Assembly (NCBI GenBank): GCA_016722505.1
Contig: JADKJH010000005.1
Location: 190,872 to 254,871 of the forward strand
Direction of reading: 5' to 3'
Length of the DNA stretch: 64,000 nt
Source of the DNA: Holophagaceae bacterium
GTDB taxonomy: Bacteria > Acidobacteriota > Holophagae > Holophagales > Holophagaceae
The number at the start of each line of letters is the position of its first letter. The stretch's first letter is position 1. Under the pieces are notes generated by a model. That model ran no database searches. It worked only from the letters and a program-made list of their open reading frames with translations, and was not told the origin of the DNA. Position numbers and translations under genes: made by a program. This document shows, piece by piece, positions 8,475-53,910 of this stretch.

Positions 8475-9779
8475 TCAGGCGATTTCAGCGCCCAAAAACT
8501 GAGGTCCAGCCATGGTAACCGTTACATCCACCAACTCGCCAAAGGGCAATATCCGTCCATCTCCGGTTTGGATATGGACGTTTTTCCAATCCCCCGTCCG
8601 CCCCATCCAAAAGCCATCTTTAGCTGGGCTGTGGCTTTCGACCCGCGCCTGCACCGTGCGGCCGACGAACCGCAGATTGCTCTCTTTGGCCAGCTCCAAC
8701 TGCCGTTTTTGAAGCCGCTGCAACCGCCCGGTCTTCACAGAGGCTGGAATGTCATCCTTGAGCCGCAGCGCCGCCGTTCCTGGGCGTGGACTGTAGATGA
8801 AACTGAAGGAAGAGTCGAATTTCACAGTCTCCAGCAGCTTCATGGTGGCTTCAAAGTCTTCATCGGTTTCTCCCGGGAAACCCACGATGAAATCCGTGCT
8901 GAGGCCAAGTTTTACACGGCCATCCCCCAGGTAACCCAGAGACTCCAGATACTGTTCCACCGTGTACTCCCGGAGCATCCGCCGCAGCACCGCATTGGAA
9001 CCGCTCTGTACTGGAAGATGAAGGAATGGCGCTACTTTGGGATTAGTGACAAGGACTTTGGCCAGCTCTTTGGTGAAGTTCATGGGGTGGCTGGTAGTGA
9101 AACGGATCCATTCCAGGCCTTCAACTTCCGAGACTCGCTCCAACAATTCCGCGAAGCTGCAACCGCCACTGAAAGAGTTGACATTCTGGCCAAGCAATTC
9201 CACTTCACGATACCCACTTGCCACCACCCCCCGGACCTCGGCCACGATGTCCTGCCAGGGGCGATTTCGCTCAACCCCGCGGGTGGTGGGAACAATGCAA
9301 TATGTGCAGGCGTGGTTGCAACCTTCAATGATGGTCACAAGGGCTTTTGCGGTGCTTCTACGCCTCGCGGCTTCAGGTGGGAAAAGGTGGTTGTCGGGAT
9401 ATTCCCCGGTATCCATGACGCGTTTTTTGCCCGCCTTGGCTTCTTCCACAAGGCGTGGCAGCTGGTTCAAGGCCATGGTACCCAGCACAAAATCTATATG
9501 CGGGGCCCTCCTGAAAAGCGCAGCCTGTTCCTGCTGGGCCAGACAGCCGGTCACCCCAATGAGAATGTCCCGCTTCTGTTTCTCCTCCCGAAGGCGGCCC
9601 AGCACTGAAAAGACCTTGTGGACAGCCTTTTCGCGAATGGAGCAAGTATTCAAAAGCACCAGATCCGCCTCGCTCGAGGTGCTGACCTGAGTGAAGCCTT
9701 CCTTCAAGAGCAACCCCGACAGCCTTTCACCGTCGTGGTCGTTCATCTGGCATCCCCAGGTTTGGATATGGAACTTCAT
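8475..9779 (-). CDS. miaB: tRNA-2-methylthio-N6-dimethylallyladenosine synthase (radical SAM methylthiotransferase)
   Basis: MKFHIQTWGCQMN MTTase N-terminus, CTYCIVP radical-SAM motif, TRAM C-terminus; 434 aa. Confidence 0.95.
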   Translation of the reverse strand: MKFHIQTWGCQMNDHDGERLSGLLLKEGFTQVSTSSEADLVLLNTCSIREKAVHKVFSVLGRLREEKQKRDILIGVTGCLAQQEQAALFRRAPHIDFVLGTMALNQLPRLVEEAKAGKKRVMDTGEYPDNHLFPPEAARRRSTAKALVTIIEGCNHACTYCIVPTTRGVERNRPWQDIVAEVRGVVASGYREVELLGQNVNSFSGGCSFAELLERVSEVEGLEWIRFTTSHPMNFTKELAKVLVTNPKVAPFLHLPVQSGSNAVLRRMLREYTVEQYLESLGYLGDGRVKLGLSTDFIVGFPGETDEDFEATMKLLETVKFDSSFSFIYSPRPGTAALRLKDDIPASVKTGRLQRLQKRQLELAKESNLRFVGRTVQARVESHSPAKDGFWMGRTGDWKNVHIQTGDGRILPFGELVDVTVTMAGPQFLGAEIA

Positions 9780-10075
9780 AATCGTTCCCTATTCCTGGGA
9801 ATGCCGATGAAGTGGACTACCCCCCGATCACGCAGTCCACTGGACTGCGCTCCCGCTCGCCTCCGGCTCGCGGAGGGGGCCCCGTGGACTACCCCCCGAT
9901 CGCACGGTCCACTGGACCGTGCTCCCGCTCGCCTTCGGCTCGCGGAGGGGGCCCCGTTCTGGCATCCCCAGGTTTGGATATGGAACTTCATGCGCGGTCC
10001 TGACCAAACCTTTAATTCTAAGAGGCGGCCACCTGAAAGTCCTCGGAAAATATAGCGATGGTGGACTTCTGGCAT
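9776..10075 (-). promoter_or_regulatory. miaB leader: upstream ORF that begins with a perfect copy of the first 11 MiaB codons (MKFHIQTWGCQ) and ends in TGA overlapping the miaB ATG (ATGA)
   Basis: 33-bp exact direct repeat 9747..9779 and 9959..9991 (ctggcatccccaggtttggatatggaacttcat) brackets two 72-bp tandem repeats. The reading frame is open from 10075 or 9991 down to TGA at 9776..9778. Confidence 0.45.
9812..9955. repeat. 2 x 72-bp tandem direct repeat in the miaB leader (about 90% identical units)
   Basis: Unit 1 is 9812..9883 and unit 2 is 9884..9955 (gtggactaccccccgatc...cggctcgcggagggggcccc). Each unit contains a small hairpin ctccg-gctcg-cggag. Confidence 0.9.
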
Positions 10076-49278: not shown

Positions 49279-50282
49279 ATGAAGAAACTTGCAATCAACG
49301 GCCTGGGCCGGATCGGCCGGCTGGTCCTTCGGCTCTTGATAAAAGACCCCCAAGTCCAGGTGGTAGCGGTGAACGATCTCACCGACGCGGCGACATTGGC
49401 GCATCTCATAAAACACGACTCTGTGCACGGCACCGCGGATTTCCCTGTGGCCGCCGATGGCGATTTTCTTGTGCTGGATGGAAAGCGCATCCGCGTTTAC
49501 GCGGAAAAAGATCCACAGCTCATCCCGTTCGGCGCGTTGGGCGCGCAAGTGGTGTTGGAGTGCACTGGCATCTTCACCAAGAAAAATCAGCTTCCGCGCA
49601 TATCCAGGGCACCGTGAGCCACGTCATCATCAGCGCACCGGCCGACGATGCCGATCGCACGGTGGTGATGGGCATCAACGAGCAGGAGATCGATCCCGCC
49701 AAAGAATCCGTCCTTTCAAATGCCAGCTGCACCACCAACTGCCTGGCACCCATGGTCCAGGTGCTGGATCAGGCATTCGGCCTTGAACTCGGATTGATGA
49801 CCACGATCCACAGCTACACCAACGATCAACGGATCCTCGATCTCCCCCACAAGGACTTGCGCAGGGCCCGGGCCGCTGCACTTTCCATGATTCCCACCAG
49901 CACGGGGGCGGCAAAAGCCATAGGGCTCGTGATGCCGCATCTCAAGGGAAAGCTGGATGGCATTTCGGTCAGGGTTCCCACTGCGGACGTAAGCCTTACG
50001 GATCTGACCGCGACGCTCAAAACCGACGCATCCAAGGACGCTGTGAACGCGGCATTCAAGCAGGCCAGCCTTGAAGGCCCCCTGGCGCCTTATCTGGACT
50101 ATCTGGAAGAAGAACTCGTCAGCGTGGATCTCATCGGCAGCCCCGCCAGCTGCAGCTTCGATCCCTATCTCACCAAAGCTCTCGGGCCTCGCATGGTCAA
50201 GGTCTTCGGCTGGTACGACAACGAATGGGGATATTCAGCCCGGCTCAAGGATCTCTGTATGCATGTCTTGAACAAGCTTTGA
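49279..50282 (+). pseudogene. gap: Glyceraldehyde-3-phosphate dehydrogenase (type I), split by a frameshift in an A5 run (about 49583-49590)
   Basis: N fragment MKKLAINGLGRIGR...LECTGIFTKK; C fragment ...VSHVIISAPA...SNASCTTNCLAP...WYDNEWGYS. Different frames, overlap 49560..49617. Confidence 0.85.
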
Positions 50283-50297
50283 GGACGTGGCCAGCGC

Positions 50298-51302
50298 ATG
50301 ATTGGAATCAATGGCCTGGGGCGGATCGGAAGACTGTTGGTGCAGCGCCTCGCGGTGGCCGCGCCAGCCCGCCTTGGCGCCTTGAATGATCCGGCGGACC
50401 TGCAAACCATCGTTCATCTGCTACGCCATGATTCAATTCATGGCCCCTGCCCCATTCCAGTGACTGGCTTGGTGCGAAACGGCCGCGACTGGCTTCGCAT
50501 CGCCGACCTGGAGCTTCCACTTTTCCATGAACCGGACCCAGGCAACATCCCCTTCGAAGGATGCGGCGCAACCTTGGTGGTGGAAGCCTCGGGCCGCTTC
50601 ACCAAGCGGGAGATGGCCGCGCGGCATCTCAAAGGAGGCGTGAAACACGTCATCATCTCGGCCCCGAGCCCCGACGCGGACATCACGATCATTGCTCCCA
50701 TGAATTTCGATGCGCTGGATCTCCAGCGGCACCAGATCATCAGCAACGCCAGTTGTACCGCCCATGCCACCGCGCCTATGTTGCAGGTGTTGGAGGAAGG
50801 GTTCGGGATAGAATCCGCCGGAATGAGCACAGTCCATGTGGTGACCAACGATCAGCGCCTGGCCGACGCGCCCCACAAGGATCTCCGCCGGGCCCGCCAC
50901 GCCTTCCAGAGCATCATTCCCACGACATCCTCGGCCTTTGGCGCGCTGCACCGGGCCATGCCCAGCCTGCCGCCCGGCTTCAGCGGTTCTGCCCTGCGAG
51001 TGCCCACGCTCAGCGTGAATCTGGTGGACATCACAGCCACGTTGAAGTGCGACGTGGATGCGGCAGCCGTGGACCAGGTATTTCTCACGGCGGCTGCGGC
51101 CCCGCGCTGGCGCGGCATCCTGGGAATCGCAGAACAGGACTGTGTAAGCCATGATTTCATTGGACGCACCGAGAGCGTCGTGATGGATCTGCAACTCACC
51201 CGTGTGCTCGGGAAACGCTTCGTGAAGATCTGTGGATGGCACGACAACGAGACCGCCTACGCCGAGCGGCTGATGGAGCTGGTGCTGCGCATCAGTCAGT
51301 GA
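50298..51302 (+). CDS. Divergent GAPDH-family paralog (NAD-binding + catalytic domains, catalytic Cys retained, active-site motif SNASCTAHATAP)
   Basis: MIGINGLGRIGR, HVIISAPS, SNASCT..., WHDNETAYA; 334 aa intact; immediately downstream of gap. Confidence 0.8.
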   Translation: MIGINGLGRIGRLLVQRLAVAAPARLGALNDPADLQTIVHLLRHDSIHGPCPIPVTGLVRNGRDWLRIADLELPLFHEPDPGNIPFEGCGATLVVEASGRFTKREMAARHLKGGVKHVIISAPSPDADITIIAPMNFDALDLQRHQIISNASCTAHATAPMLQVLEEGFGIESAGMSTVHVVTNDQRLADAPHKDLRRARHAFQSIIPTTSSAFGALHRAMPSLPPGFSGSALRVPTLSVNLVDITATLKCDVDAAAVDQVFLTAAAAPRWRGILGIAEQDCVSHDFIGRTESVVMDLQLTRVLGKRFVKICGWHDNETAYAERLMELVLRISQ

Positions 51303-51870: not shown

Positions 51871-53069
51871 ATGCCAATTCTGAATGCCGCAGCGCAAAGG
51901 CCCGTGGTCGCCACCGGGCAGCAGATCGGTGCCGGTTGGACACCTGCGCTTTCCGTGGCCAAGGCCTTGGCGGCTTTGGCCGAAGCCACGCGCCTCGGCA
52001 TGGATGCGGTCTATTGGATGGCGGATGAAGATCACGACCGCGCCGAGGTGGCCACTACGGCGGGGCTTGAAGACGGCAGGTTGGTGCGCCACCGCTTCCG
52101 CTTTGATGCGCCGGAGGGTACCGCCGCAGGCTGGCTGCCCTGGGATACTCCACAGCAACACCAAGCCGAAGCGCTTTGGGGCGAAGCGCCGGCAGCTGTT
52201 GAAAAGACCTTGCGAGGGCACACTTTGGGACTGGGCGGGCCCCTCTGGGAGTTGGGACTGCAGCCCTTCTCACCCACAAATCCCACGCTACGCGAACCCA
52301 TCCAGCCAGAACTGGAACGCTGGCGCAGCCTGGATCTGGAAACCCAGCTTCTCCTATCGGCGGCGCGTCTGGAAGCTGAAGGCGCCCCCCTGCCCCTGGA
52401 CCCGCGGCAACAAGCCGCTTGGTTTTCCCTGGACCCTCAGACTGGCCTTCGCCGCCGCCTGGAACGCGGGGATGTCTGCCCCAAGGGCCACTGGCTCAGC
52501 CCTGGCGCAGCTCTCCGGCCCCTGATGCAGTCCTTGATGTTGCCGGTGGCGGCCGCCGTGCTGGGACCTTCAGAACGGGCCTATTGGCGGCTGACGGAGC
52601 CACTGTGGGAACAGGTGGGACTGAAGGCACCAAGAATCATTGCCAGGCCTTCTGTCTTCGTATTGCCTAAAGGCGCCCATGTGGAAGCTTCAAAACTTTC
52701 GGATCTGGATGCCCTCAGAGATGGCCGCTGGCAGGCATTCTCACATCCAGAAAATCGGCTCCCATCCCAGCGCCTGGGGATTCGGCCCCGGATCCAAGCT
52801 GGGGCCCGGCCATCGGCTCACGGTATGCCAAGGAGCTGGGTCGCACGCGGCATCGTCTGGAACGCCTGGACCAAAGGTGGGTCCGGGATCTTGCGGCGCA
52901 ACAGTTCAACATGGATCCAGAACGGCTTCGGCAGCGGCTCTTCCCCTTTGGCAAAGCCCAGGAGCGGGTACTGCCAGGCCTTTTTTGGCTGCGGGATAAA
53001 CTGCTCATTCGCCGCATATTGGAATCCCTGGACGGAAACAGAAGCCTGATCCTTGTGGAGGAATCATGA
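51871..53069 (+). pseudogene. bshC: Bacillithiol biosynthesis cysteine-adding enzyme BshC (YllA family), C-terminal third shifted into another frame (about 52780-52840)
   Basis: N part VATGQQIGAGW...VYWMADEDHDRAEV (TGQQ/EDHD hallmarks). C-terminal coiled-coil ...YAKELGRTRHRLERLDQRWVRDLAAQQFNMDPERLRQRLFPFGKAQERVLPGLFWLRDKLL found in frame +2, ending TGA 53067..53069. Confidence 0.7.
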
Positions 53070-53179
53070 GCAAGGGCCTCGACCTGTTCATCGGCGAGCA
53101 CCCGGAGCCTGCCGTACCAACATCTTGGCCCTTCCGGCCACGGCCTCGGTGCGCGGGCATTTCAGGGAGGAAGGCATGA
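53066..53179 (+). promoter_or_regulatory. 37-codon upstream ORF derived from a diverged duplicate of the bshB 5' end, ATGA-coupled on both sides (bshC stop / uORF start; uORF stop / bshB start)
   Basis: MSKGLDLFIGEHPE... versus BshB MSHEGLDLLVIGAHPDDAE; about 110-bp degenerate tandem duplication (53060..53175 versus 53168..53280). GGGAGGAAGG RBS precedes the bshB ATG. Confidence 0.4.
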
Positions 53180-53910
53180 GCCACGAAGGTCTCGATCTCC
53201 TTGTCATCGGCGCGCACCCGGACGACGCGGAAGTCCATGTCGGGGGCCTGCTGGCGCTGGCTTCCCTGCACGGCCTGAGGGCTGGAATCCTGGATCTCAC
53301 CAGTGGCGATCTTGGCACCCGGGGCACCGCGGAAACGCGCCGGGCGGAAGCTGCCGCCTCAGCCAGCATTCTCGGCGTCCAGCGCTATGATCTGGGTTTT
53401 CCAGATGGACGGTTTTCTGAAGAAGAGAGCTATCGCTTGCTGCTCATGTCGAAACTGAGGGAATTGAGGCCATCCGTACTCATCCTTCCGGCGCCAGAGG
53501 ATCGCCACCCAGACCATCGGCGAGCCTACCGTCTAGGCCGCGAAGCGGCGTATTACGCGGGTCTGAAAAATTATCCCTGCCCAGGAGACCCCTGGCGGCC
53601 CAAGGCTATCGCGTGGATGGCTGGAGAGAACCCGGGCCAGCCTGACCTTGTGGTGGACGTCAGCGAAGTTTGGGCCGCCCGGATGGCGGCCTTCGACGCA
53701 TTCGGCAGCCAGTTCTCCGCAGACCCTAGCGCCTCCACTCGCATCGCGCATCCCGCTTTCCGGCGGGGCGTAGAAGGGCGCGCCATGCACTACGCATCGT
53801 TTCTTCTCTGCAATTGGGCCGAAGCCCTTTGGTGCGAAAAACCCGTGCCTCCCGCGCTGCTGAACCTGCTTGAGCGATTGAACCAGCCTGTTCCGGGCAG
53901 CAGAACGTGA
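53176..53910 (+). CDS. bshB: Bacillithiol biosynthesis deacetylase BshB (PIG-L/LmbE family)
   Basis: LLVIGAHPDDAE, HPDH motifs of LmbE-like deacetylases; adjacent to bshC. ORF finder extends upstream to 53053 via TTG. Confidence 0.8.
   Translation: MSHEGLDLLVIGAHPDDAEVHVGGLLALASLHGLRAGILDLTSGDLGTRGTAETRRAEAAASASILGVQRYDLGFPDGRFSEEESYRLLLMSKLRELRPSVLILPAPEDRHPDHRRAYRLGREAAYYAGLKNYPCPGDPWRPKAIAWMAGENPGQPDLVVDVSEVWAARMAAFDAFGSQFSADPSASTRIAHPAFRRGVEGRAMHYASFLLCNWAEALWCEKPVPPALLNLLERLNQPVPGSRT

Follow-up and report, generated by a model that had tools for sequence, protein, structure and literature searches.

The DNA examined here, called the window below, is a 64,000-nucleotide (nt) stretch of a Holophagaceae genome (GenBank assembly GCA_016722505.1, contig JADKJH010000005.1, positions 190,872 to 254,871 of the forward strand), and our subject is a small upstream open reading frame (uORF) lodged between two of its genes, bshC and bshB. 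These genes belong to a co-directional row consisting of two gap paralogues, bshC, bshB, tilS, and ftsH. The bshC gene (51871..53069, plus strand) is a short member of the BshC family (partial match to TIGR03998, 72 bits; PF10079 on the intact orthologue), and its C-terminal frame ends ...SLILVEES* with the TGA at 53067-69. The bshB1 gene (53176..53910, plus strand) encodes 244 amino acids and is a true BshB1, scoring 191.5 bits against TIGR04001, the NCBIfam BshB1 equivalog, for which the cut-off is 182.5. Its stop codon TGA and the GTG start of tilS share the sequence GTGA (53907-53910).

The uORF (53066..53179, plus strand) has 37 codons, MSKGLDLFIGEHPEPAVPTSWPFRPRPRCAGISGRKA, and touches both neighbors. 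Its ATG at 53066-68 overlaps the bshC TGA at 53067-69 to form one ATGA (53066-53069), and its own TGA at 53177-79 overlaps the bshB ATG at 53176-78 to form another (53176-53179). A sequence-only reading of this DNA had placed the two ends of the uORF, both overlaps, and the bshB start at these same positions, and the Shine-Dalgarno (SD) sequence of bshB inside the uORF 3' end, and all of this is correct. The SD of bshB, GGGAGGAAGG (53165..53174, plus strand), lies within the 3' end of the uORF, and the last bshC codons, GTG GAG GAA TCA TGA, carry the SD of the uORF itself (GGAGGA, 53057-62). The arrangement known from translationally coupled ATGA pairs, a stop/start overlap with an SD motif inside the upstream open reading frame (ORF), is thus found at both uORF ends, as is the overlap of uORF stop and main start of the iraD type. 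As an observation on the row as a whole, bshC, the uORF, bshB, and tilS form an unbroken series of 4-nt overlaps.

The first part of the uORF is a diverged copy of the start of bshB. Local alignment of 53057-53160 with 53166-53288 gives a score of 73, against 37.5 ± 5.4 for dinucleotide shuffles (z = 6.5), a score reached by none of 3,000 shuffles and by none of about 3,000 random window pieces. The sequence-only reading had described a copy of 110 nt, about 75% identical and beginning at the uORF ATG. Its view that the segment is a duplicate is borne out well beyond chance, but it overstated the length and misplaced the beginning, which is at the SD (53057). The signal is confined to the first ~50 nt, comprising the SD, ATGAGC ... 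GGCGxGCACCCGGA, and codons 1-15 up to GxHP(E/D). Over this part, copy 1 (53057..53107, plus strand; GGAGGA, ATGAGC, and codons for GLDL(F)IG(E)HPE), a duplicate of the bshB translation-initiation region, matches copy 2 (53166-53223) at ~85% identity with two in-frame gaps, and the SD in the bshC tail corresponds to the bshB SD in copy 2. The other ~56 nt of the uORF show no significant similarity to bshB codons 16-45 in the window or in five other lineages (z between -1.3 and 0.8), and the demonstrable duplicate is therefore ~50 nt long and starts at the SD. Tandem Repeats Finder detected no repeat at the junction because the copies are too diverged or gapped. We refer to the rest of the insert (53108..53164, plus strand) as the spacer; its origin is uncertain, its length is invariant, and its variable center evolves about as fast as third codon positions.

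The insert is both real and old. The junction (52776-53664) is 100% identical in two assemblies of the same species, L201 (an ENA/NCBI contig) and L202 (an independent Logan assembly), and the same insert is found in six further Holophagaceae lineages (L001, L209, L204, L210/L211, L203, and L017), in which the orthologous uORFs have 36 to 43 codons. The carriers are bacteria of soil and water. These six metagenome-assembled genomes (MAGs) come from different studies, their inserts are 22 to 36% diverged, and all seven insert-bearing lineages have in common the insert junction CAYCCRGAG-CYTGC. Among the window sequence (WIN), L001, L209, L204, and L210, bshB has a synonymous difference (pS) of 0.58, a synonymous divergence (dS) of ~1.1, and a ratio of nonsynonymous to synonymous divergence (dN/dS) of 0.09, and the insert is therefore older than deep splits in the family. 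In some 40 other Holophagae loci, bshC and bshB instead overlap directly in ATGA (GTGGAGGAAyCATGA), and the final codons of bshC provide the bshB SD. This is the ancestral state, and outgroup orthologues accordingly show an unduplicated junction. Related genomes that lack the segment had been named as what would count against it, alongside evidence of misassembly; many relatives do lack it, but as secondary losses or as outgroups. A pattern search of metagenome contigs with GGNGNNCAYCCNGAGCYTGCC returned at least 120 chance matches, none of them adjoining bshB among the matches listed.

That the repeat arose by local misassembly, or as a collapsed or expanded repeat, is so improbable that it can be set aside. 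A direct repeat is present, and one probable consensus error lies nearby (52776-52779). Yet the sequence is identical in two independent assemblies, orthologous inserts occur in six other MAGs, and the two copies differ from each other, which together rule out an artefact and strongly support the earlier claim that the duplication is old and real. The nearby error concerns bshC. The window has GGGG at 52776-52779 where the near-identical assemblies L201 and L202 have GGGGG, a 1-nt deletion that shifts the frame; this is either a homopolymer consensus error, which is the probable case, or a strain-specific pseudogene. The bshC frame does end at 53067-69, as had been said, but as given only its last ~98 codons are in that frame, while the frameshifted ORF runs from 51871 to 53049 and ends 17 nt 5' of the uORF ATG. 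Intact bshC, as in L201 and L202, has 399 amino acids and ends at 53069.

Comparison of the lineages indicates what has been retained. Both ATGA overlaps are kept in six of the seven insert-bearing lineages, which upholds at the sequence level the claim that the uORF is ATGA-coupled to both neighbors; that ribosomes really are coupled there is what we infer. GGAGG-like SD motifs are present in L001, L209, L210, and L017, and a weak one (GGGGG) in L204. From the Glu codon that follows His-Pro to the stop codon, the distance is exactly 75 nt in six of seven lineages, the distant L017 included, with a spacer identity between lineages of only 64 to 78%. The indels seen in copy 1 (-3 and +18 nt) are both in frame. 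In L017 the conserved block described below is one nucleotide out of phase relative to the other lineages, and the ORF still ends on ATGA. In a neutral simulation that assumed indel/substitution ratios of 0.05 to 0.1, the chain of two overlaps survived in only 0.24 to 0.40 of lineages; with substitutions only, the ORF survived in 0.69 to 0.77.

The peptide, by contrast with the nucleotides, shows no sign of selection: spacer dN/dS is 0.68 in the uORF frame versus 0.75 and 1.15 in the other two frames. What is conserved, third codon positions included, are the nucleotides of GAGCCTGC, CACGGCCTGGGTGCGCG, the SD, and ATGA. Mean pairwise difference is ~0.14 in the block containing CACGGCCTGGGTGCGCG, here called the anti block, and ~0.40 in the 25-nt center (loop), while third positions of bshB differ pairwise by 0.36 to 0.53. 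The comparison of peptide with nucleotide conservation that had been proposed thus comes out against the peptide and in favor of the length and the nucleotide block. These patterns suggest that selection acts on the reading frame, the length, the two overlaps, the SD, and an RNA segment rather than on the peptide.

The RNA segment in question is the anti block CACGGCCTCGGTGCGCGGGC (53139..53158, plus strand), whose positions 53142-53155 complement GCGCACCC(A/G)G in each copy, so that CACGGCCTGGGTGCGCG can pair either with GCGCACCCAG(AGCC) of copy 1 or with GCGCACCCAG of copy 2. In the first pairing, predicted hairpin A, the 5' arm is the copy 1 segment CGAGCACCCGGAGCC (53095..53109, plus strand), which pairs with 53142-53155; it has 14 pairs, 89.8% of cells paired, and 2 compensatory pairs. 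Its covariation score was reached by 9 of 500 shuffles, and a slid partner was only 13 to 44% paired. In the second, predicted hairpin B, the 3' arm consists of bshB codons 12-15, CGCGCACCCGG (53211..53221, plus strand), and the bshB SD and ATG lie inside the stem; it has 11 pairs, one of them compensatory, and is 89.6% paired. L001 has GGATGCGCG opposite CGCGCATCC in both copies. Folded as sub-sequences, both are stable, the region of hairpin A at -19 to -34 kcal/mol and that of hairpin B at -31 to -39 kcal/mol. We found no terminator-like site between 53000 and 53300, no conserved U-tract after the stem, no promoter in the insert, and no match to the covariance models of Rfam 15 at E <= 1 in 52500-53800. 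The possibility that the anti block or spacer is a dispersed repeat was also considered and rejected, the anti motif being unique in the window.

The two copies also keep recombining, with some homogenization and repeated clean loss of the insert as the outcome. Insert-bearing lineages are interspersed with insert-free ones. L204, which has the insert, is sister to L003/L217, which lack it, with 100% bootstrap, and the BshB N-terminus of L003/L217 (MSEGLDLL) equals the N-terminus of the L204 uORF, not that of L204 BshB (MSHKDFDLL). This is the signature of a deletion by recombination between the two copies. L017 and L001 each have lineage-specific variants common to their own two copies. Strong concerted evolution was considered and rejected: the within-genome excess in identity is only small, and the case rests on few shared variants and the recombinant N-termini. 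Beside these cases stand two remnants that look like scars of inter-copy recombination or deletion, a 12-nt scar GTGAGTGCTGGC ahead of ATGAGTCAC in L208 (2760-2790) and a related extra ATGAGCGAAGCC in copy 1 of L001 (3989-4005).

Taken together, the comparative sequence evidence makes it probable, in our judgment, that an ancient duplication of the junction has been retained as a relay uORF for termination-reinitiation coupling from bshC to bshB. In the ancestor of a Holophagaceae subclade, the bshC-bshB junction would have been tandemly duplicated. The stretch so duplicated would have taken in the SD within the bshC tail along with the ATGA overlap and bshB as far as codon 15 or beyond, and the upstream copy would then have lost the catalytic DDAEVHVGG codons. 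At present that copy is an ORF of 36 to 43 codons that starts on the bshC stop and terminates on the bshB start, each time through ATGA. Whether they come from the end of bshC or load at the strong SD in its tail, ribosomes would unavoidably translate the uORF, and its stop on the bshB ATG would let them be handed on by termination-reinitiation. Such reinitiation would thereby keep the chain from bshC through the uORF and bshB to tilS (GTGA) translationally coupled. The RNA segment GGCCTGGGTGCGCG, which can pair with copy 1 (hairpin A) or copy 2 (hairpin B), would also be under selection. The role of the conserved stem is uncertain; speculatively, it would most likely keep ribosomes from loading on bshB independently, so that bshB translation would depend on those arriving through the uORF. 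That the uORF is translated, and that ribosomes reinitiate at bshB, is deduced from the analogous systems discussed below.

Several observations weigh against this relay. The insert has been lost in at least five close relatives and is therefore dispensable. L203 is an exception among the carriers, having abandoned the relay: its anti block is gone, and its BshB is fused to the upstream ATG. bshB has a good SD of its own, so it may not need a relay, and an open uORF frame alone is weak evidence in GC-rich DNA, where the bshB frame is likewise open across the insert. Copy identity within genomes exceeds that between genomes only slightly (30.0 vs 27.8 of 36). The evidence for the stems comes from seven related sequences with 2 to 3 compensatory events, and the minimum free energy (MFE) form is not constant, being hairpin B in WIN, L001, and L209, hairpin A in L204 and L017, and neither in L210. 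In the window, hairpin A is weakened by two substitutions, and the region folds no more stably than shuffles (z = +1.0). The predicted probability that the bshB ribosome-binding site is unpaired, 0.29 to 0.61, is unremarkable.

As a neutral relic, the insert would be a decaying pseudo-5'-end without function whose open frame and terminal ATGA are by-products. Copy 2 brings its own ATGA, stops are few in GC-rich DNA, and the deletion already seen repeatedly in close relatives could merely be pending elsewhere. The near equality of dN/dS in all three frames, the third-position-like rate of the loop, the survival of the ORF in most simulated lineages when only substitutions are allowed, and the unremarkable fold all agree with such decay. 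What makes us regard it as unlikely is that the insert has been kept across a bshB pS of 0.58 (dS ~1.1) despite flanking direct repeats that favor deletion, that six lineages have exactly 75 nt and every indel seen is in frame, and that a 17- to 19-nt block is conserved at all three codon positions and remains complementary to the copies through compensatory changes. A relic also does not readily account for a copy-1 part that is far more bshB-like than the spacer. If instead the copy-1 arm, the anti segment, and the copy-2 arm formed a three-segment switch read by the ribosome on the uORF, the leader would be regulatory. It might respond to charged Cys-tRNA at a uORF Cys codon and would tune BshB and TilS synthesis. 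In favor of this reading, the bacillithiol pathway consumes cysteine, an established role of BshC. All seven uORF peptides contain Cys, even where nucleotides or codon phase differ (L017, L203), and five lineages have the Cys codon at a distance of 8 codons from the stop, where a stalled ribosome would cover the bshB SD. The two stems are mutually exclusive and nearly isoenergetic, with an MFE choice that differs by lineage. Yet each uORF has one or two Cys codons and no tandem run; by a rough hand estimate from composition, 23 GC-rich codons would include one or more Cys codons by chance with a probability of ~0.46, and three independent cases would arise with ~0.1, which is not significant. 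In five lineages, moreover, the conserved stem sequence simply includes the Cys codon, the stems are followed by neither a terminator nor a U-tract, Rfam gives no match, and the logic of a switch is unclear when bshB is translatable in both states. We therefore hold a regulatory leader to be improbable. More doubtful again is its fullest form, in which the 5' end of the gene itself would have given rise to a cysteine-sensing translational attenuator that serves bacillithiol synthesis in Acidobacteriota. The bshB SD and ATG would then be open or not according to how the ribosome advances along the uORF, and scarce cysteinyl-tRNA might slow it at the Cys codon and leave it stalled over the bshB SD.

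A further alternative concerns only the origin of the insert and is compatible with a relay function. In place of a simple tandem duplication of ~110 to 135 nt, a short foreign or mobile spacer of ~56 nt may have entered behind bshB codon 15 and duplicated a long stretch of its target. Such an event would fit the lack of significant similarity between the spacer and bshB codons 16-45 in every lineage tested, and also the leader of miaB elsewhere in the window, where exact 34-nt duplicates of the gene's 5' end flank two 72-nt palindromic repeats. But neither strand of the spacer resembles the miaB element (z at most 0.6), the anti motif occurs only once in the window, and at a dS of ~1 unconstrained duplicated sequence would have decayed past detection anyway. 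Two further points come from inspection by eye and have no statistical support: fragments (TGGC..TTCC..CACGGCCTG..GGGC) that are collinear with bshB codons 27-37, and an ATCCTGG microhomology where the borders of the duplication are predicted; a ~135-nt duplication between the ATCCTGG microhomologies is our conjecture. We see the insertion as a possible but less than likely source. Neither candidate identity of the spacer was adopted, as diverged bshB codons 16-45 (no statistical support) or as the same element as the miaB leader (no similarity).

The relay has close parallels among known systems. Translational coupling by termination-reinitiation is described for ATGA or TGATG gene pairs, whose stop and start codons overlap, and strict coupling was found for 13 of 14 gene pairs tested with ATGA overlaps (Huber et al. 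2019, PMC6728339). As in those pairs, co-directional ORFs here share ATGA with the SD inside the 3' end of the upstream ORF, and the ancestral bshC-bshB junction and the bshB-tilS junction are ordinary examples of such junctions. The insert differs in that two overlaps are chained by a 37-codon ORF without protein-level conservation, an ORF that arose from the initiation region of the gene downstream. In function, the nearest analogue is the leader of E. coli iraD, in which a uORF stop overlapping the main start, together with an SD-sequestering structure, mediates coupling (Park et al. 2017, PMC5574718). Common to both are a short leader ORF with its stop on the main start and main translation that is proposed to depend on the uORF; a further likeness would be an RNA structure, predicted here, that might enclose or sequester the main SD. 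The uORF described here, however, is not at a transcript 5' end; an enzyme gene precedes it, to which it would itself be coupled. Nothing known points to a regulator such as CsrA, and the lineages do not agree in whether the SD would be sequestered.

Attenuators of the trpL, hisL, and pheL type combine a short translated leader with alternative pairing of three RNA segments (1:2 versus 2:3), to which the uORF and its predicted stems would correspond. The likeness extends to a leader codon for the amino acid consumed by the pathway. Unlike those leaders, the bshC-bshB insert has no U-tract terminator hairpin and no run of regulatory codons, and it lies within an operon between two coding genes.

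What is unusual, then, is a uORF made from the downstream gene's start region, placed between two enzyme genes, and long kept without peptide constraint. Two ATGA overlaps chained through a uORF are otherwise a variation on ordinary translational coupling, neat but modest, and knowledge of bacillithiol synthesis and of translational coupling is unchanged unless the stem proves regulatory. A limited literature search turned up no paper that describes a uORF between bshC and bshB or the origin of a uORF from a duplicated junction. The locus is a natural case, dated and spanning several lineages, of the way in which a uORF can arise in bacteria, with a junction duplicated and its surplus start turned into the start of a short ORF, and it indicates what selection retains afterwards (frame, length, stop-on-start overlap, SD, and stem) and what it does not (the peptide). 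It also illustrates that direct repeats at a gene start keep exchanging sequence and that loss of the insert can swap an enzyme's N-terminus.

For annotation, such inserts cause mis-called starts. The public BshB calls P0004 (L204, 253 amino acids) and P0013 (L203, 267 amino acids) start inside the insert, and their N-terminal extensions are spacer or copy-1 sequence read in the bshB frame, likely a mis-annotation caused by the duplicate. The L203 locus (JADKKO010000001.1, 2990-3140) has a variant insert with a Pro-rich spacer, without the conserved block, and with no start codon at copy 2; its 267-residue BshB is annotated from an ATG inside copy 1, 7 nt past the uORF ATG, so that two ORFs start 7 nt apart in different frames. 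An exact-sequence look-up of the window BshB returned no record, and P0001 differs from it by one residue.

The sequence-only reading had likened the bshC-bshB uORF to the leader of miaB, and in outline the likeness holds: in both, a gene start is duplicated upstream, and an ORF from the duplicate ATG ends on the real start. The miaB leader (9746-10001, minus strand) lies 5' of miaB (8475..9779), the first 34 nt of which are repeated exactly 212 nt upstream, and a 72-codon ORF that opens at the upstream ATG runs as far as the miaB start, with which its stop forms ATGA. It departs from the bshB case in the length of that ORF and in what separates the copies, which is not diverged gene sequence but two tandem 72-nt palindromic elements (92% identical, hairpin GGTCCAGTGGACC) along with ~33 nt that hold the SD. 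The 72-nt element has no Rfam match and was not found elsewhere in the window. The miaB duplicates are 100% identical, unlike the diverged copies at bshB, and the event is therefore recent.

Directly 5' of the bshC region, at 49560-51302, lie the two neighboring gap paralogues (GAPDH, PF00044/PF02800). The same gap pair is also present in L201, L204, and L209.

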